A stretch of DNA of 64,000 bases from a virus (Duplodnaviria > Caudoviricetes), in IMG/VR virus record IMGVR_UViG_3300021400_000131, positions 1 through 64,000 of that record; one strand, 5' to 3'. A program made the position numbers and the translations under genes. The notes beneath the pieces are model-generated. The model saw only the letters and a list, made by a program, of their open reading frames with translations. It had not been told where the DNA came from and searched no databases. Below are positions 5,274 to 41,549 of this stretch, in pieces; position 1 is the first letter of the stretch, and every line of letters begins with the position of its first letter.

Positions 5274-6073
5274 GTGACCTCCTCAACCTCGAATGCCCCG
5301 CTGTTGCCAAGGAACCGCGCAACGTCGTTGAGCTTGTCAACCTCCGCAAGCGCGTCCTCCATCGTGAGGTACAGCCCGTAGCAGCGCGGCTCAGGCTGCT
5401 TCGCCCAGATGAGGTACGCTGGTTCGCTTGTGTCGGCAAGCGGAACGCCAGTCGCATCCATGTGCTTGGTCGTGTTGGCGTCGAACTCATGCCGTGCCTC
5501 GTGGATGGCCTCTCGTATGCGCTCGTCACTCGGAATCGCCACCTCGGCTGCGGGCCGTATCTCCTCGATGGGGTCAAGCGGCGCTCCGCATACGGCTTGG
5601 CCTTCATCGCTTTCGCCGCTGTCAAGAACGGGCTTGCGCTCCACCATGTCCATGAACTGCTGCTCGGCCTCCATGTCGGCGAGCCACTTGTCGAACTTGC
5701 CGATGGCGTCGGTGTCATCCTTCGCGTGGAAGGCCCGCGTCTCCTCGACGCCACCAACCGTCGCGCGGCCAACGTAGCCATCATCGACGCTGAACGTAAG
5801 CTCCTGCCCGACCTTGCGCTGCGCCACAACGCGGAACCTGGACTCCTTGCGCTCCTGCTCCCTGCCGCGCTCCCTAAGCGTGCGGCGGTAGTAGACGCCC
5901 ACGGTGTCCGGCGCGATTCCGAACTTCTTGGCGATGTCCTTGTTGCCGAAGCCCTTGCGCACCATGTTGAAAAGCTCTAGCTCCTGCTCGCGGTCGAGCT
6001 TCCTCCTTCTCGGCAACGGGTCCACCCCCTCCCATGTCTCAGTGCCGTTCGGCACGTATCTCACCTTCTGCAT
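5261..6073 (-). CDS. HTH-containing putative regulator
   Basis: GFGNKDIAKKFGIAPDTVGVY helix-turn-helix near N-terminus. Confidence 0.6.
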   Translation of the reverse strand: MQKVRYVPNGTETWEGVDPLPRRRKLDREQELELFNMVRKGFGNKDIAKKFGIAPDTVGVYYRRTLRERGREQERKESRFRVVAQRKVGQELTFSVDDGYVGRATVGGVEETRAFHAKDDTDAIGKFDKWLADMEAEQQFMDMVERKPVLDSGESDEGQAVCGAPLDPIEEIRPAAEVAIPSDERIREAIHEARHEFDANTTKHMDATGVPLADTSEPAYLIWAKQPEPRCYGLYLTMEDALAEVDKLNDVARFLGNSGAFEVEEVTWKV

Positions 6074-6086
6074 AAACGGCTCCCGT

Positions 6087-6410
6087 TTATGAGTTCTCCA
6101 AATGCTGTGTCTCGATGCCCGCGAACTCGCGCATGATGCGCTCGTACTCGCGCAGGGCGTCGACCAGACCGACGGCCTCGCCCTTGGCCTTGGCCTTCAG
6201 CAGCTCGTCGGCCACGTAGACGAACGCACTGCCCACGGTGCTGTAGCTGTAGAACCTGCCGCAGCGGTGCCACGTCGGCTCGGTGCCGCCCTGATGCCGC
6301 CCACGCGCCTGAGTGACGTGGCGGTGGCACAGCTCCCAGTTGCGCCCGTCGACGGGGACGAGCTTCCAGTCATCGGCGAGGATGACGCCGCCGCTCTCCG
6401 ATTCGTTCAT
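6087..6410 (-). CDS. hypothetical protein
   Basis: AAGGA RBS then MNESESGG. Confidence 0.6.
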   Translation of the reverse strand: MNESESGGVILADDWKLVPVDGRNWELCHRHVTQARGRHQGGTEPTWHRCGRFYSYSTVGSAFVYVADELLKAKAKGEAVGLVDALREYERIMREFAGIETQHLENS

Positions 6411-6537
6411 GTGCCTGTCCTTCCAGAATCGATTCTGCCAAGCGAGAGTGGCCCTATTCGGCCCGCAAGCGACGCATGTGGGCAACTAGTCCACCTTGCG
6501 CCCGCAAAGCCTCTGAGGGCTTCTGGCTTGTTCCTGC

Positions 6538-20550: not shown

Positions 20551-21711
20551 ATGGCTAAGAAGCGACTGAGGGACGAGTGGGGTTCGATCACCGAGGTTGA
20601 CCGCAACGAGAGGTACCGCATCCGCTATTGGGGCAAGGATGAGAGCGGCACCTATCGACGCATGACCTGCACTGTCCGTGGTACGCGACGGAACGCGGAA
20701 CGCAAGCGGGCTGAACTGATGCTCGAACACAGCGAGGAAGCGCAATGCGTCACCGTCGATTACGTCTGGAAGCACTGGTACCTTCCGACTCTTGAGCGGC
20801 GCTGCAAAGACGGCGAGATGTCCGACAAGACCGTGAGCCAGTACAAGAGCCGCTACGGCTCCGCAATATCCGAGAGGTGGGGGCAGGTGCCGTGTGACGG
20901 AATCAGGCCACTTGACGTGCAGCAGTGGCTCGACGGCATCAGCTACACCAAGGCGAGCCAGTCGCTCAACATGCTCAGGCCAATGCTCGACTACGCCGTT
21001 AGATATGGCGAGATACCTTCCAACCCGTTCAGGGAGCGCTATCTGCTTCCGTCGAAGTCAACGGTCAAGCGCATGGACGATGGCGTATGGAAGCTCGGCG
21101 AGCTGAACCAAGTGTGGGAGCATGTGCGCGGAGAGTGGTTCGAGGGTGCCTTCATATGTGCGGCGTTTGGCGGGTGCCGTGTGGGCGAGTCGATTGGCGT
21201 CCAGGTAGGCGACATAAATCGCCTTGACGTTGACGGCCTATGTGTTGCGGTTGTCAGGGTCGAGCGTCAGGTGAAGAACGCTGGTGGCGTTTCCGAACAG
21301 TTGAAGAACCCGCAAAGCAGGAGGCCAATCGTCATTGTCGGCAAGCCAGCGGAGCGCCTGTGCGAGATTGCCGAAAGCGCATCGATCTGGGTTACTGGCG
21401 ACGGCTTCGGTGGGCCAACGACACAGTTGAGGCTTGGAACATCATGGAAGCAGATGGCAGACCGATTGCCAGATGGGATGTGGCACCCGTTCAGGAACCT
21501 CAGAAACAGCTACCAGACGTTCATGCGCTGGGAGGTTGGACTTGCCCCGTACTACATCGAGGAGCTGCTTGGTCACAAGGGAACGACGGTCACCGACAAG
21601 CACTATGACAGGCCGGACGAGAGCGCCATCGTTGGCGTCACCGTGGCGGCATGGGAGGCGTACCTAAAGGCTTTGCGGGCGCACGGAAAAGCACCCTTCG
21701 ATGCACGTTAA
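20551..21711 (+). CDS. int: tyrosine integrase
   Basis: Catalytic pattern GCRVGE, LKN, FRNLRNS (H replaced), LLGH, HY; N-terminal arm-binding region. Confidence 0.9.
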   Translation: MAKKRLRDEWGSITEVDRNERYRIRYWGKDESGTYRRMTCTVRGTRRNAERKRAELMLEHSEEAQCVTVDYVWKHWYLPTLERRCKDGEMSDKTVSQYKSRYGSAISERWGQVPCDGIRPLDVQQWLDGISYTKASQSLNMLRPMLDYAVRYGEIPSNPFRERYLLPSKSTVKRMDDGVWKLGELNQVWEHVRGEWFEGAFICAAFGGCRVGESIGVQVGDINRLDVDGLCVAVVRVERQVKNAGGVSEQLKNPQSRRPIVIVGKPAERLCEIAESASIWVTGDGFGGPTTQLRLGTSWKQMADRLPDGMWHPFRNLRNSYQTFMRWEVGLAPYYIEELLGHKGTTVTDKHYDRPDESAIVGVTVAAWEAYLKALRAHGKAPFDAR

Positions 21712-22225: not shown

Positions 22226-22258
22226 AAAAATCCCCCGCCCCCATTGCGGGGACGGGGC
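22226..22258 (-). terminator. intrinsic terminator after the cassette array
   Basis: CCCCGTCCCC-loop-GGGGCGGGG-ATTTTT. Confidence 0.55.
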
Positions 22259-22271
22259 AGCTTGCCGCAGC

Positions 22272-22909
22272 CTACGACACGAAAGTAATGCCAACCAAAG
22301 CAAAGGGGGCGCCAGTTTCATCCGGTGACGGAATCTCGCTTGGCGTCGGAATCGTGAACCCCATCCAATGCTTGTTCTCGCCGACGTAGTACTGCACGCC
22401 ATCGACTCCCCTGTACAGGCGAAGAGGGTAGTCTCCTGACCACAAGGAGGACTTGAAGCCTACCATCAACGACGCGCCCTCTTGCTGTAGGCTGGAATTG
22501 GACGAGTCGAGGCCAATGACCATATAAAGCCCAGCGCGGAGCTGGGGACCAGGACTTGGGCTGCCGTCCACCCTGAGCAGTGGCGCAGTGGAGAGGGTTT
22601 CTGCGCTGTCATAGTCGCTGTCGAGCGTGATGGGGCTGTCGTAGATGCGCCACGTGTCCATTGGTATGGTGCCAGACCCGGTGACGATGAAAGCTACGCT
22701 CTCGTTCGGAAGGTCGCTACCGCCACCCCCACCACCCCGCCGATGTTCGGTGCGAGGTTCCTAATGGCCTCGGCGATGGTCCCACCATGAGCCTCGCCAC
22801 CAAGGGCTACGGTCACGGCATCCACCGCCTCGGCAATGGTCTTTGGAGCGTCACCGTCATAGCCATTTGCCTCGGCAATGGCGGCAAGCTCTTTCTTCTT
22901 CGTAGCCAT
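22272..22909 (-). pseudogene. cassette paralogue A, split by a 1-nt frameshift in the Gly linker
   Basis: MATKK..GYDGD..TIAEA start (22694..22909); poly-Gly linker and C-terminal domain continue in the -1 frame into 22272..22661. Confidence 0.7.
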
Positions 22910-23020
22910 GTGCTACCTACTTTCCGTTTCGCGTTGGTGCGGTGTGGCGTGGTGGCAGGATGCTGCGTACTACTTTCGTAACGTTTATCCTGCCATCTCC
23001 TGTTGTGTTTAGATCACCTG

Positions 23021-23491
23021 TTAGCCAAGGCCGTGTTTCGTTGCTATATTGTTTTTTTCCACGTCGTTGTTGGAGTTGATCCGAATATACGTGATTTGTC
23101 CGCCTTGGCTACCGAGTCCGTAAAAATCCGCATACTGATACTCGCTATACGTGGCAGCATCGCAGAAGTCACTCAACGGCATCAGTTGATAATTCCACAC
23201 GTCATTCGAGCCATCCGTAAGACCAGTAATAAGTGCCCAAACAGGCAGACTTGCACGTACTGCTTCGCCAATCTCAGCAAACGTCTTATCGGCTGTGATG
23301 GTGGTACCGCTTTGAGTGTTAGTCACGGTAATTTTTACGATGAAAAGCTCACCGCCACCGCCACCGCCGCTGCCACCGCCGCCCATGACGGAGCCAAGTG
23401 CATTCACGGCCTCGGCAATGGTGCTGCCGCCATCGCCATCGTAGCCCTGCGCCTCGGCGATGGACATGATTTCTTCCTTGATGGTTGCCAT
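23021..23491 (-). CDS. cassette paralogue B
   Basis: GGAGG RBS; MATIKEEI..GYDGD..TIAEA, GGGGSGGGGGG, variable domain. Confidence 0.8.
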   Translation of the reverse strand: MATIKEEIMSIAEAQGYDGDGGSTIAEAVNALGSVMGGGGSGGGGGGELFIVKITVTNTQSGTTITADKTFAEIGEAVRASLPVWALITGLTDGSNDVWNYQLMPLSDFCDAATYSEYQYADFYGLGSQGGQITYIRINSNNDVEKNNIATKHGLG

Positions 23492-23615
23492 GATGGCCTC
23501 CTGTTCTGTTCGTGCCATCGCCGATTGGCGGTGGCGGTTAGCTTGTTACCTCGTAGTGCCGTGGCCGACGCGCTGCGCGTGGTGGCTGCTGCACTCGTGG
23601 AGTCGGCTGAGACGG

Positions 23616-24074
23616 CTAAGAAAGCATCGTTGACGTGTACTCCTTGTTGCTGCCGCTGGTGCTTGTAGACGTGATTTTCATCCCCTTTAGGGACCAAGCC
23701 CCCATGCCATCGTCCTTTCCGTAGAGGGCATATACATCGACCTTGCAAGCGTCATCTGATACTTCGGATACTCTATAGCTAGTCGTATTCATATAGCTAA
23801 TCCCGTCAGAAGGGATAAAGACACCATCAAGGCTAAAGTAGATAAGAGCGCCCTCGCTGTACAAATCATAGATTTCCTTGTTGGTCTTGTCGGCAATTAT
23901 CGGACCCGTTTCACTAAAACTAAAGGTGACCTTGACCAGCTTGCCGCCGCCGCTGCCACCGCCACCCATGACGGTTCCGAGCGCGTTCACTGCCTCGGCA
24001 ATGGTCTGGGGAGCGTCACCGTCATAGCCATTTGCCTCGGCGATGGCGACGATCTCTTCTTTCTTCGTAGCCAT
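23616..24074 (-). CDS. cassette paralogue C
   Basis: MATKKEEI..GYDGD..TIAEA, GGGGSGGG, variable domain. Confidence 0.8.
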   Translation of the reverse strand: MATKKEEIVAIAEANGYDGDAPQTIAEAVNALGTVMGGGGSGGGKLVKVTFSFSETGPIIADKTNKEIYDLYSEGALIYFSLDGVFIPSDGISYMNTTSYRVSEVSDDACKVDVYALYGKDDGMGAWSLKGMKITSTSTSGSNKEYTSTMLS

Positions 24075-24170
24075 GTGCTACCTACTTTCTGTTTCGCGTT
24101 GGTGCGGTGGGTGGAATAGTTGGTTAGAGAGCTAGGTGGGTGACACATGCCCCGAAGCCGTCCGGGGCGA

Positions 24171-24632
24171 TTAGGAGCCGAGCGTGCCCCTTGCACCCTT
24201 GAAGGTCGTGCCGCTCGGTGCCATTGCAATCAATGACACAGCAACCTCAGTCTTGTTCATTGATGTGGTTATGGTCACAAGGTAGAACTCAAGGACGGTT
24301 ACCATGCTTCCCGCGCTCTTGTCATATGTCATGCCAAAAGAGCCAAGTCTATACACGCAATTGTCATATCCGCTCATGGAGTGGTCGTGGATGACCACGA
24401 CATCGTAGTTGCCCTCGTTGACGTAGGCAACGGCCTCCTCATAGGTCACGTCTGTGGTAAGCACATCGTCACCACCTGTGGCAGTAATGATCATGCCTGC
24501 GCCCCCACCAGAGCCGCCACCGCCAACATAGCCAGCAGCAACCTTGATGGCCTCAGCCGTGGTTCCCGGCATGTCACCTTCATACCCACCCTCGCGGGCA
24601 ATAGCTACAAGCTCTTCCTTCTTAGTGGACAT
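24171..24632 (-). CDS. cassette paralogue D
   Basis: MSTKKEEL..GYEGD..TTAEA, GGGGSGGG, variable domain; AAGGAGG RBS. Confidence 0.8.
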   Translation of the reverse strand: MSTKKEELVAIAREGGYEGDMPGTTAEAIKVAAGYVGGGGSGGGAGMIITATGGDDVLTTDVTYEEAVAYVNEGNYDVVVIHDHSMSGYDNCVYRLGSFGMTYDKSAGSMVTVLEFYLVTITTSMNKTEVAVSLIAMAPSGTTFKGARGTLGS

Positions 24633-24789
24633 TCGCCCTCCTTAGACAGAAAGAGGGCGGGAGAAGATTGCCTTGAGCAACCCCCCCCCCGCACCAACTT
24701 TTCGATTGATACCGGGGCGTTTTCCCACGCCGCCCCATTGGCACGCTTGGTGGTGCCTCACCATTCCCACGTGGGTGGATGGAGTTCCT

Positions 24790-25164
24790 TTACCTGTGAC
24801 CCGCGCAAAGCCTGTCGATGCAGACGGGTCTGCCAAGCGCCCTGCTTGCTGCGGCCACCGCCTCGATGGCATGGCCTTCGACAAGCTGTGCCGCCCACTC
24901 CTCGGTTGGCACCCAAGCGCTCGCGGGAATGCCGGAGCGCAGCCGCCCAAGGAGTCCCCATGACAGCGTGATCGCGTGCGCTATCTCGTGCAGCATCACG
25001 CGGTCGAGGAGCGGCGGCATCACCGACTCGCTGACGCATACCGTCCTCGTCGCTGGGTCAGTGGTGGCGAGCCGTTCGATGCCCGTTCTGTCCGTGAGCC
25101 TAGCGTCTCCTGCTGGCACCCTGACAACCCTCCACACGTCCCCGTTGATGACGAACGGCCTCAT
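24790..25164 (-). CDS. HExxH metallopeptidase-like protein
   Basis: RVMLHEIAHA ... EEWAA. Confidence 0.6.
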   Translation of the reverse strand: MRPFVINGDVWRVVRVPAGDARLTDRTGIERLATTDPATRTVCVSESVMPPLLDRVMLHEIAHAITLSWGLLGRLRSGIPASAWVPTEEWAAQLVEGHAIEAVAAASRALGRPVCIDRLCAGHR

Positions 25165-25358
25165 GCTACATGCCGAGCATCTGCCGCAGCTCGCGCTGCT
25201 GAGTCCCTGCCGTTGACCTTGATGATGCCGTTCACTGGCTGCTGCACGGGCATCGGCTGGGGCTGGTACCCCATAGGAAGCTGCTGCGTGACGCCGTAGC
25301 CCTGCGGGACCGTGACCTGTGGCAGGTACGGGTTGTTCCATGTCGGCGTGTAGGGCAT
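25161..25358 (-). pseudogene. truncated Pro/Gln-rich phage protein
   Basis: P/Q-rich N-terminus then IIKVNGRDSA followed by abrupt junk ending. Confidence 0.45.
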
Positions 25359-25361
25359 TGA

Positions 25362-25532
25362 CTATGCCTTCTCTCTCTCGACGGTTACGACGCGCTCCGT
25401 GTGAAGGCACCGCTCGCACGTCAGCTCGACCGTCCTGACCCCATTGAGGGACCAGTCGGAGTAGAGCAGCATGTACAGCGGTGCGCCGCACTTGGGGCAT
25501 CGGCGCTCCGTTACTATCGACTCGTCCCTCAT
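25362..25532 (-). CDS. small zinc-ribbon protein
   Basis: RCPKCG...TCERC. Confidence 0.55.
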   Translation of the reverse strand: MRDESIVTERRCPKCGAPLYMLLYSDWSLNGVRTVELTCERCLHTERVVTVEREKA

Positions 25533-25656
25533 GGCAGAAGCCCAGCGACGAGCTGTGCCACGGACGAGACGATGTGGAAGATTCCCACGCACGCGAGCAA
25601 GATGAGGGCGAGCATCGCGGCGTCGGCCTCCTCTATGCTCGTGTGCCGACGCCGCC

Positions 25657-26421
25657 TCACTTGACCACCCTGCCGAAGTCGCAGGTGGCAATCGCGGTGT
25701 ACAGGCGCTTCTTGGTGCGTGGCCCGATGTGGGTTGCCCAGACGTATCCGTTGCCGATAACCACGCCGTCGAACGTCCACTGGTCGCCAGCGTCGAAGTG
25801 GGTGACCTTCTTGCCCGTCTTGGTGCTGGGCGCGTCGCGGACGTTGGTGAACTTGTTGAACTCGTACTCGAACGTCATGGGAATCACCTTCGTCGCTGTG
25901 CTTGTGGTGGCAGACGTTGTGCCGTAGCTGACCTTGACCGCCTCTATGGTGCCGTCGCCAGCGCGGTTCGGCTGGCTGTAGCCGTGGGCGCTGTGGTCGA
26001 TGAGGTGGTCCATCACCTGTGCCGCGACCTCTGCCGCAGGGATGCCGTTGACGGTCTTGCCGCCCTCGTAGCGCAGGAGCTTGGTCCAACTGCCCTGACG
26101 GTACGCCGAGCGGGCAATCTCGCCGCCCGTCTGGTCGCCCCTGTTGGGGCCAGTGATGCCGCCGTACTCATCGATGCGTGCGCCACCTTGCATGTTGTTG
26201 CCCAAGTACATCTCCGTGTGACCCTCGCGCCAGAGCACGTCGCCGCGCTGCGGGGACGATAGGCTGCGCTGCACGAAGCCGTTCTCGGCCAGCAGCTCAA
26301 GCTCGTTGCCTGTCCACATATACGAACCATAGGGAAGCACGTCTGCCGCGCGGTAGCACATGCGCACAGCCTCGGAGCAGTCAGCGTCGCCTCCGTGGAT
26401 ATAGACCGTGGCCGTCGCCAT
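25657..26421 (-). CDS. endolysin: NlpC/P60-like peptidase plus SH3b-like domain
   Basis: DCS, RGDVLWREGHTEMYLG; C-terminal NVRDAPST...NGYVW; GGAGG RBS; next to holin. Confidence 0.85.
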   Translation of the reverse strand: MATATVYIHGGDADCSEAVRMCYRAADVLPYGSYMWTGNELELLAENGFVQRSLSSPQRGDVLWREGHTEMYLGNNMQGGARIDEYGGITGPNRGDQTGGEIARSAYRQGSWTKLLRYEGGKTVNGIPAAEVAAQVMDHLIDHSAHGYSQPNRAGDGTIEAVKVSYGTTSATTSTATKVIPMTFEYEFNKFTNVRDAPSTKTGKKVTHFDAGDQWTFDGVVIGNGYVWATHIGPRTKKRLYTAIATCDFGRVVK

Positions 26422-26423
26422 CG

Positions 26424-26636
26424 CTACTCCTCCGTGGGCTTGGCGGTGTAGGTGCTGATGCCCATCACAGCGCACAGGAAGGTGTACACGACCGCGATGG
26501 TGCGGGTCACCTCGTCGGCGTAGGGCCAGCCCCAGATGCCAGCGAGTCCGGCATACAGGACCGACACGGCGGGCATGACCACGGTGACAATGAACTTGAT
26601 GAGGTCGTAGACGTGATTGGGAAGCATGTAGGTCAT
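26424..26636 (-). CDS. holin (Dp-1-like)
   Basis: LPNHVYDLIKFI..VVMPA..LY..LAGIWGWPY; two TM segments. Confidence 0.85.
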   Translation of the reverse strand: MTYMLPNHVYDLIKFIVTVVMPAVSVLYAGLAGIWGWPYADEVTRTIAVVYTFLCAVMGISTYTAKPTEE

Positions 26637-26640
26637 GGTT

Positions 26641-27087
26641 CTACTCCTTCTTCTGGTGCTCTCGGTCAGGCAGGTCCATGACCTGTTTGACCAACTGCTC
26701 GACGAAGTGGTTCTTGATGCCGTGCTTGGCGCATATGTCGCAGTAGACCTCGTACTCGGCCCAAAGGCTGTCCTTCTCCTCGGTGGACGCGCACTTGAGG
26801 TCATCCATGTAGCGGTGAATCTTGTGCGTGATGTCGGAGCGCATCTGCGTGCACTGCGCCTCTAGCACGGACTCGATCTTGGTGTCCTGGCAGTTCATGC
26901 GCTTGTCGATGTCCTCGCGCCACTCGGCCTCTGCCTTGCGCTTGGCGTCGGTGGCCTCCTTGTCCTTGTCCATGCGCTCTGAAATCTTGCGCTGGCCCAG
27001 GTTGACCATCGCCTGACCGAAGCAGATGAGGATTGATGCCACGATGGGCGCTGCCCATCCGATGAGTCTGGATAGCTGTGCGTCCAT
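26641..27087 (-). CDS. membrane-anchored lysis-module protein
   Basis: N-terminal TM helix then coiled coil; upstream of holin. Confidence 0.65.
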   Translation of the reverse strand: MDAQLSRLIGWAAPIVASILICFGQAMVNLGQRKISERMDKDKEATDAKRKAEAEWREDIDKRMNCQDTKIESVLEAQCTQMRSDITHKIHRYMDDLKCASTEEKDSLWAEYEVYCDICAKHGIKNHFVEQLVKQVMDLPDREHQKKE

Positions 27088-27539: not shown

Positions 27540-28865
27540 CTAGTTGAGGCGTACTGCGGTAATCCATGTGTCTCCCGCACCGCTGGTTATCGACGCGCTT
27601 CCAGCCAGATACACCGTTGTCTTGGAGCTGAACGTGCGGAGCGCGGATACGTTGAGAACGGCGAAGTTGCCGCTCGACTGCCTGATGCGGACGCGCTCGC
27701 CCCATAGGGTGCCCGACGCGCCCGAGCGGAAGCCCACTTGCATGTTGCGGTCGCCGCTGGCCGACGCGCTGTTGAACGTCCATGCGCCAACGAACATGTA
27801 GGAGCCAGCGGGAATCGTGATGCGCGGCCCATTGGTGTACGTGTCGATTCCTGCCGTCGTGATGGCATAGCTCCCGCTGTTCTGGTAGCGGGTCGGGTCG
27901 CCGAGCTGGAGGTACGTGCTGAGGCTTGAGTCGTACGGGTCTGAGAACCTGATGGTTTTCATGCCGTTTATGTTCATATCCGTGCGGCCGTTGAAGTTGT
28001 TGATGTCGATGTCGCTGTAGTTGTACTCGCCACCTATCTCGACTATCATCCGCGACCCCTCGGGGTCGGCCTCGACTATCATGCCCGCGCCGTGGCGCTC
28101 GTACCCTCCCGAGTCGAGGTACGTCGCGCCGACGTATCCCGCGTCAGCCGAGTCGCGCATGGTGATGAGCTGGCGGTTGTTAATGCCTTTGAGAACATCG
28201 ACGGAGTTGCCGTCTATGCTCACGTGAATGTCGGCGTCGCGACCTATCTGCGCTCCCGTGCCGAGCAGGCGGGCGATGATGTTGCTACTCTCGTTGCCCT
28301 CGCCGTCGTAGATGGCGATGCCGCTCGGCAGGATTGCTAGCAGGTTGTTGGTCCCGTCGCGGAAGAGCTGGCCGATGCTGTTGATGAGCACGTTCGCCCC
28401 CGTCTGCGCCGCCTGCCACGCCTCCTGCGTGGCCTCCGTGACGTGGATGCCGCTGGTGTCGGCCCAGAAGTGCTGGTTGACGGCATCCGCGACGGCCTGT
28501 GCAGCCTCGGCGATGTTGAGGGACGCGGCGACCCTGCCGCCCAAGCCTGACACGGCCTTCCTGACGGGCGCAAGCGCCTCGCCCACGAACCGCCCACCGA
28601 CGCTTGGGCTTGTGCTGTTGCCCGTGATCGTGACGCCGTTGTTCTCGATGTTGTACGTCACCGTGTCACCAGGCTGTGCCTCGGCGACGATGCCTCCCGC
28701 AACGGGCGTGTCGAAGTCGTTACCGGGGATGCGCACCCAGCCGACGCCGGACTCGTCTCGGCGCACGAACGTCGCTGTGCCCCTTCCGCTCGGGGCAGCA
28801 GCGTCCTTCGGGGTAAGCGCCTTCTTGAGTGCCCATGCCACGCGGGCGCTTATGTCCTCTGCCAC
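27540..28865 (-). CDS. minor tail / tail fibre-like protein
   Basis: Position in tail cluster; beta-rich C-terminus. Confidence 0.65.
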   Translation of the reverse strand: MAEDISARVAWALKKALTPKDAAAPSGRGTATFVRRDESGVGWVRIPGNDFDTPVAGGIVAEAQPGDTVTYNIENNGVTITGNSTSPSVGGRFVGEALAPVRKAVSGLGGRVAASLNIAEAAQAVADAVNQHFWADTSGIHVTEATQEAWQAAQTGANVLINSIGQLFRDGTNNLLAILPSGIAIYDGEGNESSNIIARLLGTGAQIGRDADIHVSIDGNSVDVLKGINNRQLITMRDSADAGYVGATYLDSGGYERHGAGMIVEADPEGSRMIVEIGGEYNYSDIDINNFNGRTDMNINGMKTIRFSDPYDSSLSTYLQLGDPTRYQNSGSYAITTAGIDTYTNGPRITIPAGSYMFVGAWTFNSASASGDRNMQVGFRSGASGTLWGERVRIRQSSGNFAVLNVSALRTFSSKTTVYLAGSASITSGAGDTWITAVRLN

Positions 28866-40594: not shown

Positions 40595-41206
40595 TTAGCC
40601 GTTGGCGGGTGCGGTGCCGGGGGTGATGACGGCGTTCCAGAACTTGTCGAAGGCATCGTGCGTCTGGCCGGAGTCATCGCAGTGGGCCTTGAGGACGTTC
40701 ACCGTCTTGGCGCTGGTGCCCTCGCCAATGGTGAAGTCGCGGCCAGCGGCGGTGTAGTTGACCGACACGGTGTCGGGGTTGGTCGAGTCCGTCATGGTGT
40801 TGGAGGACTGAGACGGGGCGGTGAACGTGACGTTGTAGCGGACGCCGCGCTGCTTGCCCTCATTGCCGGAAACCTCATAGCCAAGCGCGAACGTGCGGGT
40901 AACAGGCTCGGTGTTCTGGTAGGTCAGGCCAGAGGTGGCATCGTTCTGGTATCCGAAGAGGTCGGTGTACATCTCGGCGGTGATGGCCGCAAACTCAATG
41001 GTGCCCGTCTCTTTGCCTGAAGCACTGATTGTGGCATAGATGCCATCATCGGCATAGAAGTCGTTCTGGGTGGTGTCGGCATCGGAAGAGAGAGAGACGG
41101 CACCGGGGATAGACTTCCAAGGGCCGTAGGTACCAGCGGTACCATTCTCGCCGGGGGTGTAGACGGAGTAGTGGACGTTCTTGAGTCCGTAAATAACCTT
41201 GCCCAT
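40595..41206 (-). CDS. major tail protein (phi13-like)
   Basis: KVIYGLKNVHY...IPGAVSLS...FYADDGIY. Confidence 0.9.
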   Translation of the reverse strand: MGKVIYGLKNVHYSVYTPGENGTAGTYGPWKSIPGAVSLSSDADTTQNDFYADDGIYATISASGKETGTIEFAAITAEMYTDLFGYQNDATSGLTYQNTEPVTRTFALGYEVSGNEGKQRGVRYNVTFTAPSQSSNTMTDSTNPDTVSVNYTAAGRDFTIGEGTSAKTVNVLKAHCDDSGQTHDAFDKFWNAVITPGTAPANG

Positions 41207-41225: not shown

Positions 41226-41549
41226 TTATGGGTGGAATGTCAGGGTGTAAGAGGTGACCCATGAGCTTTCCATGGGCACCCACGACTCGTAGCATGCGTA
41301 GGGGCCAAGCTTCGCAAGCTGCTCCTCAAGCGCGTCAACCTCGTCCTCGTCAGGCTCAGCCTGATAGAGGTCCACGTCGTAGCGCTGAAGCTTCGCGTAG
41401 TTGGCGTTGTCGGCAAAAAACTCGCCCTTCTTGAGCCTGCGGTACGAGAACCACGGGAGGGGCGGAACCTTGCCCTCGGGCCAGCCGCTCTTTGTGCCAC
41501 GGATGCCGGACTCGCAAAGAGTCGCGTATACCGTTTCGTCAGGCGTCAT
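41226..41549 (-). CDS. tail completion protein
   Basis: Synteny; PPLPW...FFADN. Confidence 0.7.
   Translation of the reverse strand: MTPDETVYATLCESGIRGTKSGWPEGKVPPLPWFSYRRLKKGEFFADNANYAKLQRYDVDLYQAEPDEDEVDALEEQLAKLGPYACYESWVPMESSWVTSYTLTFHP

Follow-up and report, generated by a model that had tools for sequence, protein, structure and literature searches.

The closest described systems include the mosaic receptor-binding proteins of phages, as in S. thermophilus phages, where VR2 lies between collagen-like repeats, and in the T-even phages, where gp38 has glycine-rich motifs. Siphophages of Gram-positive bacteria carry accessory appendages that are added non-covalently, such as BppA/BppL on BppU in TP901-1-like phages and the neck passage structures. 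The capsid targeting sequence of T4 and the helix-turn-helix of the P22 scaffolding protein are tag systems to which the short front module described below can be likened. The virion of phi29 bears a dispensable head fibre, gp8.5 (PF11133; PDB 3QC7, 6QVK), that has a helical stem and a small distal head as well as a neck motif (PMC6542822), and the MuF-domain polymorphic toxins of prophages join a modular N-terminal part to diverse C-terminal domains (PMC11806420).

Here, we describe an array of four small genes, cassettes A to D, in a 64,000-nt stretch of phage DNA (the window). Like the mosaic receptor-binding proteins, it combines a conserved anchor with exchangeable distal domains, and recombination proceeds via repetitive Gly-coding or conserved flanking DNA. 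However, the cassettes are stand-alone genes of approximately 150 codons, arranged in tandem outside the tail module, with a 36-residue anchor, a plain poly-Gly tether, and no sequence relationship to those proteins. The mosaic pattern is also found in the canonical tail protein of this phage (27540-28865), which is 47% identical over its first 250 residues to that of the relative L005 and unrelated thereafter. BppA/BppL and the neck passage structures are extra, dispensable binding modules in which a short N-terminal segment docks on a conserved virion platform, the layout that we propose for the cassettes, and one protein with repeats of the cassette end domain also has a BppU_N domain, a likeness to TP901-1-like appendages. 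The cassette genes differ from BppA and BppL in following the lysis genes and in having no sequence similarity to either. The T4 capsid targeting sequence and the MuF toxins, in which a short or modular N-terminal part takes many different C-terminal domains to the virion, share with the array a conserved N-terminal part with many C-terminal domains and loci that are plastic between related phages. However, the array is not homologous to them and does not conserve the cleavage motif, and its end domains are tied to external fibre proteins rather than to toxins or internal proteins.

The four cassettes at the end of the late operon

The source is an uncultured, temperate siphovirus from gut or rumen with a complete genome of 76.6 kb (habitat statements leave out the small-share runs X5-X16). 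The four tandem genes claimed by an earlier note on this DNA are all present, as paralogues on the minus strand, and, as it had also proposed, they close the late operon after the lysis genes (Table 1), with the attP/integrase-like region on the other side. The integrase-like ORF shows tyrosine-recombinase motifs by eye only and had no match in Pfam. Every cassette is laid out as a complete gene in the same orientation as the others and has a start and a ribosome-binding site of its own, with a hairpin on its 3′ side; the terminator follows the whole array. For cassette B, the start at 23491 is preferred over a second in-frame ATG upstream at 23518, which would give 165 aa, because of its AGGAGG ribosome-binding site. 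No strong sigma-70-like promoter was found ahead of the cassettes; on its minus strand, the array has two matches (9 of 12), both within coding sequence, in B and C. Rfam gave no match over 19-28 kb, and a tRNA search found none. A place next to attP after the lysis genes, a hairpin per cassette, and a lower GC content are also typical of morons.

Table 1. Positions of the array and neighbouring features in the window
Feature	Position	Strand	Remarks
Integrase-like ORF	20551-21711	plus	runs towards the array, with the presumed attP region in between
Intrinsic terminator	22233-22257	minus	ends the array and the late operon
Cassette A, whole span	22272-22909	minus	broken by a frameshift
Cassette A, Gly tether and beta-rich end domain	22272-22739	minus	-1 frame
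Cassette A, front part	22694-22909	minus	three-helix front module; 71 codons
Frameshift site	22735-22738	minus	run of four bases in the Gly-coding tract, C on the plus and G on the coding strand
5′ recombination block of A	22818-22944	minus	leader and gene start; 32-mer at 22845-22876
Cassette B	23021-23491	minus	156 aa; ADKT-type end domain
Cassette C	23616-24074	minus	152 aa
5′ recombination block of C	23983-24109	minus	leader and first 92 nt of coding sequence; 32-mer at 24010-24041
Cassette D	24171-24632	minus	153 aa; MSTKKEEL-type front module, then a Gly/Ser tether and an end domain of the ADKT type; AAGGAGG as a strong ribosome-binding site
Structured leader upstream of D	24633-24789	minus	four hairpins, the last pairing the Shine-Dalgarno sequence; z = -3.9
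Lysis genes together	25657-26804	minus	just upstream of the array
Endolysin	25657-26475	minus	ELLD, Amidase_5/NlpC-P60, and SH3_5 matches
Holin	26424-26804	minus	Dp-1 family; lysis gene, just upstream of the array

A search of the 76.6-kb genome with cassette C retrieved B (E = 9e-22), A (E = 2.5e-14), and D (E = 5e-12), and no further copy. Common to all four is a front module of approximately 36 residues followed by a Gly/Ser run, and the layout of N-terminal helix, GYxG turn, helix, Gly/Ser run, and separate end domain recurs in more than 100 retrieved relatives, with AF2 models in agreement. The DNA encoding the end domains has a GC content of 0.47 in B, 0.47 in C, and 0.52 in D, whereas the front modules have 0.60-0.64 and the window as a whole 0.59; the AT-richness described earlier for B and C thus holds, and D shares it.

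Cassette A had been read as one gene, which proved incorrect for the source phage: its front frame stops early because of a one-base frameshift in the Gly-coding run, and the Gly run and end domain continue in the -1 frame. In sample X2, one extra base behind 22734 restores the frame at a depth of 15.6 of 15.6, compared with 0 of 21.4 for the same insertion in the source run X1. An intact homologue of 211 aa exists elsewhere (P0159), and three other short family members (P0037, P0040, and P0056) apparently stop at the Gly tract. At the population level, indels in the G runs of the linker turn individual cassettes off and on.

A sizeable family with diverging end domains

The end domain of A is unrelated to those of the other cassettes, as stated earlier. 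Those of B, C, and D, on the other hand, were thought to share only a short motif and turned out to be diverged homologues of one fast-diverging alpha/beta domain family, which we call the ADKT domain. The AF2 model of cassette C (pLDDT 84) has helices at residues 4-14 and 25-36, then the tether and the alpha/beta end domain. Models of the A type have three N-terminal helices at pLDDT 91-95 and a low-confidence end domain with pLDDT of about 60. The folds nearest to the cassette C model are weakly cystatin/NTF2/CaMKII-hub-like (Foldseek E ≥ 2e-3, VIA Z ≤ 4.8); even at the best of these values, no solved fold was convincingly like the end domain, and from this weak resemblance, no function can be drawn. 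The ESM Atlas gave low-score leads only. A homotrimer prediction of cassette C returned run scores of 0.02, 0.81, and 0.02, which we count neither for nor against binding. Poly-Gly tethers are unusual for rigid trimeric fibres, which counts against the virion role proposed below.

There are also long proteins with the ADKT domain in tandem repeats, where its Pfam partners are Collagen, Fibritin_C (foldon), BppU_N, and DUF4988. Three of these four are phage fibre or baseplate domains, and DUF4988 is a domain of unknown function; such fibre or baseplate features are recognisable in only about 3-4 of the 34 long ADKT proteins. P0084 and P0074 have matches to tail-fibre, tail, and fibritin PHROGs.

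The family comprises 485 cluster representatives at E ≤ 1e-3 (72 at E ≤ 1e-10), all of them from metagenomes. Cassettes A-D had no significant match in Pfam, PHROG, NCBIfam, or PADLOC. Searches of GenBank phage records with the array, cassette C, P0055, P0077, P0097, and the L010 neighbour matched neither DNA nor protein; additional scans of IMG/VR, run with P0055 and with sub-family profiles, were equally empty, and profiles A2, A4, and A5 together with the terminase had no match among species-representative genomes. PDB profile searches with A2 and A4 brought up only artificial Gly-Ser linkers or noise. The front module had no detectable relative among known virion anchors and no similarity to scaffolding proteins. 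The earlier note had spoken of an undescribed system. The family may fairly be called undescribed, but not the kind of system, since the principle of an anchor with swappable heads that recombine through Gly-rich or conserved DNA is known for phage fibres.

The neck motif of phi29 gp8.5, LPAATxTTLGGxK, also occurs in the family members L005, P0017, and P0027. In the form YSLPAATTTTLGGVKKG, it is present in L005 (ORF 6001-6531), P0017, P0027, P0034, and P0048, and absent from cassettes A-D. The profile of Phage_head_fibr (PF11133, gathering score 24.6 bits) likewise had no hit on cassettes A-D, and its scores on the relatives L005 (19.5 bits) and P0017 (17.1 bits) are under the cut-off. We therefore do not class the cassettes as phi29-type head fibres: hhalign of gp8.5 against A2/A7 gave a probability of 0.2, and there is no double beta-barrel base or helix-turn-helix supercoil stem, the models having only 2-3 short helices ahead of the tether.

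Reassortment of front modules and end domains

The constant front module with interchangeable ends that had been proposed is borne out by 99 pairs of family members in which the front modules are at least 92% identical and the end domains unlike. Conversely, over 108 aa, the end domain of B matches that of a chimera in L007 (L007_1/P0018) at 100% identity, the two front modules being 51% identical, and a D-type front module is found, 100% identical, ahead of three different end domains. Within the array, the 32-bp block said to be identical in A and C is exact, and the near-identity claimed for their leaders amounts to 90% over 40 nt; both lie in a 127-nt repeat that is 91% identical between the two cassettes. 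Short unitigs are interrupted at the 32-bp repeat within the D-C-B-A order.

At the DNA level, the crossovers of L007 map to the Gly-linker DNA (window 24505/23365) and to the shared A/C 5′ block, in agreement with the suggestion of shuffling through the conserved 5′ block. Chimeric joints are also present in contigs of other samples, with shorter sides of 75 and 112 nt. L005 and L006 carry one cassette at the matching post-lysis, pre-integrase site, beginning 45 nt past the preceding late gene, and L007 and L010 carry at least two. Relatives at that site bear different end domains and do not carry the same four genes invariantly, which the earlier note had named as a refuting outcome; cassette number ranges from one to at least two.

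The absence of a diversity-generating retroelement or invertase, noted before, was corroborated: the 76.6-kb genome has no RVT_1 match, that is, no reverse transcriptase, and no serine recombinase. The array repeats are front modules and linkers, not adenine-specific variants, which sets the array apart from diversity-generating retroelements. A shufflon or invertible tail-fibre segment (Rci, Hin/Gin/Cin, Rin) does not fit complete, co-oriented genes with no strand-changing joints listed. The reassortment itself, the crossovers in the linker and 5′ block, and the lack of a reverse transcriptase or serine invertase therefore support homologous recombination among related phages as the process that builds and re-sorts the array, with the GGN-repeat linker and the 5′ leader/front-module block as its substrates. 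By recombination at these two places, front modules and end domains are reassorted, and cassette number comes to differ between phages.

Possible role as virion-attached binding modules

We propose, giving this reading about an even chance, that the cassettes encode stand-alone accessory proteins of anchor, tether, and head, whose front module plugs end domains reassorted by recombination onto the virion as auxiliary adhesins. The front module, a conserved N-terminal helix-loop-helix of approximately 36 residues in which the GYxG turn is invariant and the second helix is of the TIAxAV type (three helices in A), would act as a docking or oligomerising plug that fixes the end domains to the virion, most likely at the tail or neck. 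A flexible tether of 5-10 Gly/Ser residues joins it to an exchangeable end domain of 100-150 residues (the ADKT domain in B, C, and D), and these end domains may serve as adhesins beside the canonical receptor-binding protein at 27540-28865. We infer display on the virion. In its favour, the L012 family member is flanked by the genes of the tail terminator (phrog_78) and of the major tail protein (phrog_88), the stop codon of the terminator gene ending one base before the start of this member; the ADKT domain recurs beside phage fibre or baseplate domains; and some members (L005, P0017) have the phi29 head fibre neck motif. In the window, the tail terminator lies at 41226-41549 and the major tail protein at 40595-41206. 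Against display count the moron-like traits of the array, the small share of long ADKT proteins with fibre or baseplate features, the lack of a convincing solved fold for the end domain, a front module with no detectable relative among known virion anchors, and the poly-Gly tether. A more specific form, possible though rather doubtful, is an undescribed, non-covalent plug-and-display arrangement of siphoviruses, in which a universal 36-residue plug would dock a swappable adhesin repertoire on a conserved tail or neck platform, with recombination in the plug and linker DNA reassorting the repertoire between phages and G-run indels toggling single cassettes.

If the front module is a virion-docking plug, 36 residues and a glycine tether would make a compact natural system for displaying arbitrary small domains on a phage particle. 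It would help to explain how gut or rumen phages broaden or tune adsorption, and might be put to use in phage engineering. Regardless of what the cassettes do, a sizeable family of proteins stands outside every curated database, as does the ADKT repeat domain, and the locus offers an unusually clean case of domain reassortment, with crossover points mapped in linker-coding DNA.

The array could be explained in other ways. One is that the cassettes are morons or lysogenic-conversion genes, i.e., non-virion factors for superinfection exclusion, anti-defence, or host modulation, with a front module for oligomerisation or for binding a host target. We consider this unlikely, though not negligibly so: the array occupies a classical accessory slot after the lysis genes and beside the presumed attP and the integrase-like ORF, with a hairpin per cassette and a terminator behind; the lower GC content of the end domains suggests imported DNA; and cassette number varies among relatives. 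However, PADLOC, Pfam, and NCBIfam are without a match, the only sigma-70-like candidates are those inside B and C, and 45 nt separate the single cassette of L005 and L006 from the preceding late gene. A programmed switch, by which a shufflon-like inversion between inverted CCGCACCAAC motifs or phase variation would pick the expressed cassette within one lineage, is hardly probable at all. The structured leader of D does hold an inverted copy of this leader motif at 24682-24698, so that inverted copies flank D (compared with 24098-24114 and 22933-22947, 87-88% complementarity), the G-run indel of cassette A differs between samples, and the three short members apparently end at the Gly tract. 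Nevertheless, arms of 15-17 nt with such complementarity can arise by chance, a serine recombinase is absent, the cassettes are all complete in one orientation with their own ribosome-binding sites, and no strand-changing joint is listed in four runs.

The front module could also be a tag of another kind than the virion plug proposed above. As a capsid- or scaffold-targeting helix-loop-helix, it would load variable effectors into the head for injection into the next host, which we regard as quite unlikely. The layout, in which a flexible linker joins a short, conserved tag at the N-terminus to a small variable domain, would suit such cargo, as would the tandem, plastic array and the location of one member within a structural gene module; against it, no scaffolding-protein similarity was found, and the IAE tripeptide, found two times in cassettes A-C and resembling the T4 cleavage site, is not a conserved feature of the family. 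A T4-type capsid targeting sequence with an (L/I)xE site was rejected on the same ground, the Glu being replaced in variants such as ALARKLGY, TIAGAIDAL, and TVAKAINAI. It is very improbable that the cassettes are secreted bacteriocin-like or RiPP-like precursors, whose Nif11-like leader a C39-peptidase exporter would cleave at the Gly run. Conserved "leaders" precede variable "cores" after a Gly-Gly run, and Pfam Nif11 (PF07862) matches weakly over the AxxxGY turn in D (13.9 bits, E = 0.068) and C (12.0 bits, E = 0.27), but these scores are far under the gathering score of 23.8 bits, and we did not assign the cassettes to the Nif11/NHLP precursors; moreover, the "cores" are folded domains of 100-150 residues, and the annotated neighbourhood of the array has no peptidase-transporter genes. 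The L012 member inside the tail gene module argues against precursors and morons alike, and the ADKT domain argues against both morons and cargo, since it occurs in fibre and baseplate proteins, whose collagen, foldon, and BppU_N parts are external structures.

Layout of the array at the end of the late operon

The virus record is complete (76,647 bp with direct terminal repeats), the window being part of it, and it represents a siphovirus whose late operon is of the standard kind, lies on the minus strand, and runs through terminase, portal, protease, capsid, major tail protein, tape measure (2208 aa), and tail proteins to a Dp-1-type holin and endolysin. The four tandem genes described in the earlier note are indeed present at the end of this operon, behind the lysis genes, and their strand is corrected here to minus, the same as that of the operon. 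Past the terminator lie a non-coding stretch, a converging integrase-like ORF, and two HTH regulators, which is the layout expected around the attP of a temperate phage. Comparison with PF00589, Pfam-A, and PDB sequences gave no match for the integrase-like ORF, which, judged by its motifs, may encode a very divergent recombinase. The D-C-B-A order rests on the original assembly because the short unitigs of the source run break at the 32-bp repeat; the equal depth (~22x) of three unitigs from that run supports it.

Coordinates of the array and of features near it or in related loci (window positions unless a locus is named)
Feature	Position	Strand	Remark
Cassette D	24171-24632	minus	paralogous gene
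Cassette C	23616-24074	minus	paralogous gene
Cassette B	23021-23491	minus	paralogous gene
Cassette A	22272-22909	minus	paralogous gene, frame split
Break in A	22735-22738		run of four G on coding strand
Intrinsic terminator	22233-22257		closes array
Integrase-like ORF	20551-21711	plus	tyrosine-recombinase box motifs by eye
Leader of D	24625-24770	minus	four hairpins
CCGCACCAAC leader motif, inverted copy	24682-24698		upstream of D; compared with 24098-24114 and 22933-22947
HEIAH ORF	24790-25170	minus	~126 codons, just upstream of array
Pro/Gln-rich ORF	25161-25358	minus	65 codons, between zinc-ribbon and HEIAH ORFs
Zinc-ribbon protein (CPKCG ... C..C)	25362-25691	minus	follows endolysin; conserved in related phages (L005 5737-5955; L006 5677-5955)
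Last tail gene	27540-28865	minus	mosaic; counterparts L005 1900-4104, L006 2599-4542
Gene fragment in L010	3-587	plus	at least 194 codons, precedes two cassettes

Among the small neighboring genes, that for the zinc-ribbon protein stands directly before the single cassette in the relatives L005 and L006. The HEIAH motif suggests that its ORF could encode a small zinc metallopeptidase; neither Pfam nor PHROGs gave a match for this ORF, which L005 and L006 lack. The Pro/Gln-rich ORF had no family match. The fragment in the related locus L010 is not a lysin and had no match in PDB or GenBank phages.

An undescribed protein family with a common plan

No cassette had a significant match in Pfam, PHROGs, NCBIfam, or PADLOC. 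Among 1.84 billion cluster representatives searched with a profile, 485 proteins matched at E ≤ 1e-3 (72 at E ≤ 1e-10), and all ten representatives looked up came from metagenome assemblies. No member was detectable in 50,697 GenBank phage records or 185,579 species-representative genomes. The family is undescribed. Most members have 130 to 200 residues and the same plan as the cassettes, with front modules of several sub-types that have two or three helices. In the AF2 model of C (68-sequence alignment, mean pLDDT 84), a helix (4-14), a turn with an invariant GYxG, and a second helix (25-36) are followed by a Gly/Ser tether and an end domain in which a helix packs on an antiparallel sheet. 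In the A type, the TIAxAI helix is repeated to give a third helix (pLDDT 91-95), and the end domain, which is beta-rich, was poorly modeled.

In B, C, and D, for which the earlier note saw only a short motif in common, the end domains belong to a single family and have diverged; the shared domain consists of a strand, an ADKTxxEI helix, and a GxxV strand. The end domain of A alone is unrelated, as had been stated. Long proteins such as P0055 and P0064 contain three to five tandem copies of the common domain, with Gly runs between them. No solved structure was convincingly like the end domain of C (Foldseek E ≥ 2e-3; VIA Z ≤ 4.8), the weak fold matches being generic cystatin/NTF2-like rolls.

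Cassette A is not a single open gene: a stop ends its front part after 71 codons, with the Gly run and the end domain in the -1 frame. Independently assembled contigs of the probable source run carry the break too. In a second sample of the same study, one additional base at this site, present at full depth, restores the frame, and another metagenome contains an intact homologue of 211 residues (78% identical). A is therefore the frameshifted allele of a gene that is normally intact. Three short relatives (P0037, P0040, and P0056) end a few residues into or past the Gly tract, and may reflect either recurrent linker frameshifts or assembly errors.

Recombination between cassettes

Recombination in the array, which had been inferred before, is shown here. 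Copy number and C-termini vary: the IMG/VR relatives L005 and L006 each carry a single cassette, flanked precisely by the lysis genes on one side and the integrase-like gene on the other, with differing end domains, and the loci L007 and L010 have at least two. The first cassette of L007 joins a D-type front module to the end domain of B, the latter being 100% identical to that of B over 108 residues, against 51% for the front modules. Its DNA matches the window in the order 24743-24505, 23365-22827, and 24109-23614, which places the crossovers within the GGN repeats that encode the linker and within the 5′ block shared by A and C, so that the proposed route through this block is supported, with the linker as another. 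The D-type front module is found unchanged before three different end domains, and in 99 pairs front modules at least 92% identical precede unlike end domains. Contigs from other samples contain a chimeric joint of a B-type front with the C end, and an A body behind a B-like front. Neither a reverse transcriptase nor a serine recombinase was found in the genome, in agreement with shuffling without a DGR or invertase, and no strand-changing joints were seen in contigs of public samples.

The repeats and composition reported earlier were also recovered. A and C carry the 32-bp block without any difference, and their leaders are 90% identical as part of a 127-nt repeat at 91%. The GC content is 0.47 to 0.52 where B, C, and D encode their end domains, versus 0.59 for the window.

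Mosaic phage fibers and tag-directed virion proteins follow the same logic of a conserved anchor with swappable heads, and recombine likewise through conserved or Gly-rich DNA; the cassettes are not homologous to any of these proteins. They did not qualify for the phi29 head-fiber family by score, base domain, or stem. Mosaicism is also seen in the last tail gene: its product is 47% identical to the L005 counterpart over the first ~250 residues, with unrelated C-terminal parts of different lengths, and is likely the canonical receptor-binding protein.

Likely role of the array proteins

Several contexts point indirectly to the virion. The locus L012 has a family member of the three-helix type between tail terminator (phrog_78) and major tail protein (phrog_88), with the terminator's stop codon ending one base before the member's start; the major tail protein of the window, a distant homologue of the one in L012, falls in that PHROG as well. 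The only Pfam partners in 34 long ADKT-repeat proteins are Collagen, Fibritin_C, BppU_N, and one DUF; P0084 and P0074 match tail-fiber, tail, and fibritin PHROGs; and some family members insert the phi29 head-fiber neck motif after the front module. Because of these three lines, we favor the array proteins as putative auxiliary binding modules, with the conserved front module probably docking them on the particle. Such modules would work alongside the canonical mosaic tail protein.

The leading alternative is an accessory (moron) role outside the virion, which the position close to attP, the hairpin that follows every cassette, and the low GC of the end-domain DNA would suit. Encapsidated cargo and a programmed switch are less likely, as are bacteriocin-like precursors, for which a Nif11 match fell far below the cut-off.

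The inverted copy of the leader motif is 87 to 88% complementary to the other two sites over 15 to 17 nt, and the public contigs compared with the array showed no inversion joints. The hairpins in the leader of D have a predicted energy of -69.5 kcal/mol (z = -3.9), and the last of them, as folded in silico, would pair the Shine-Dalgarno sequence and could thereby control translation.
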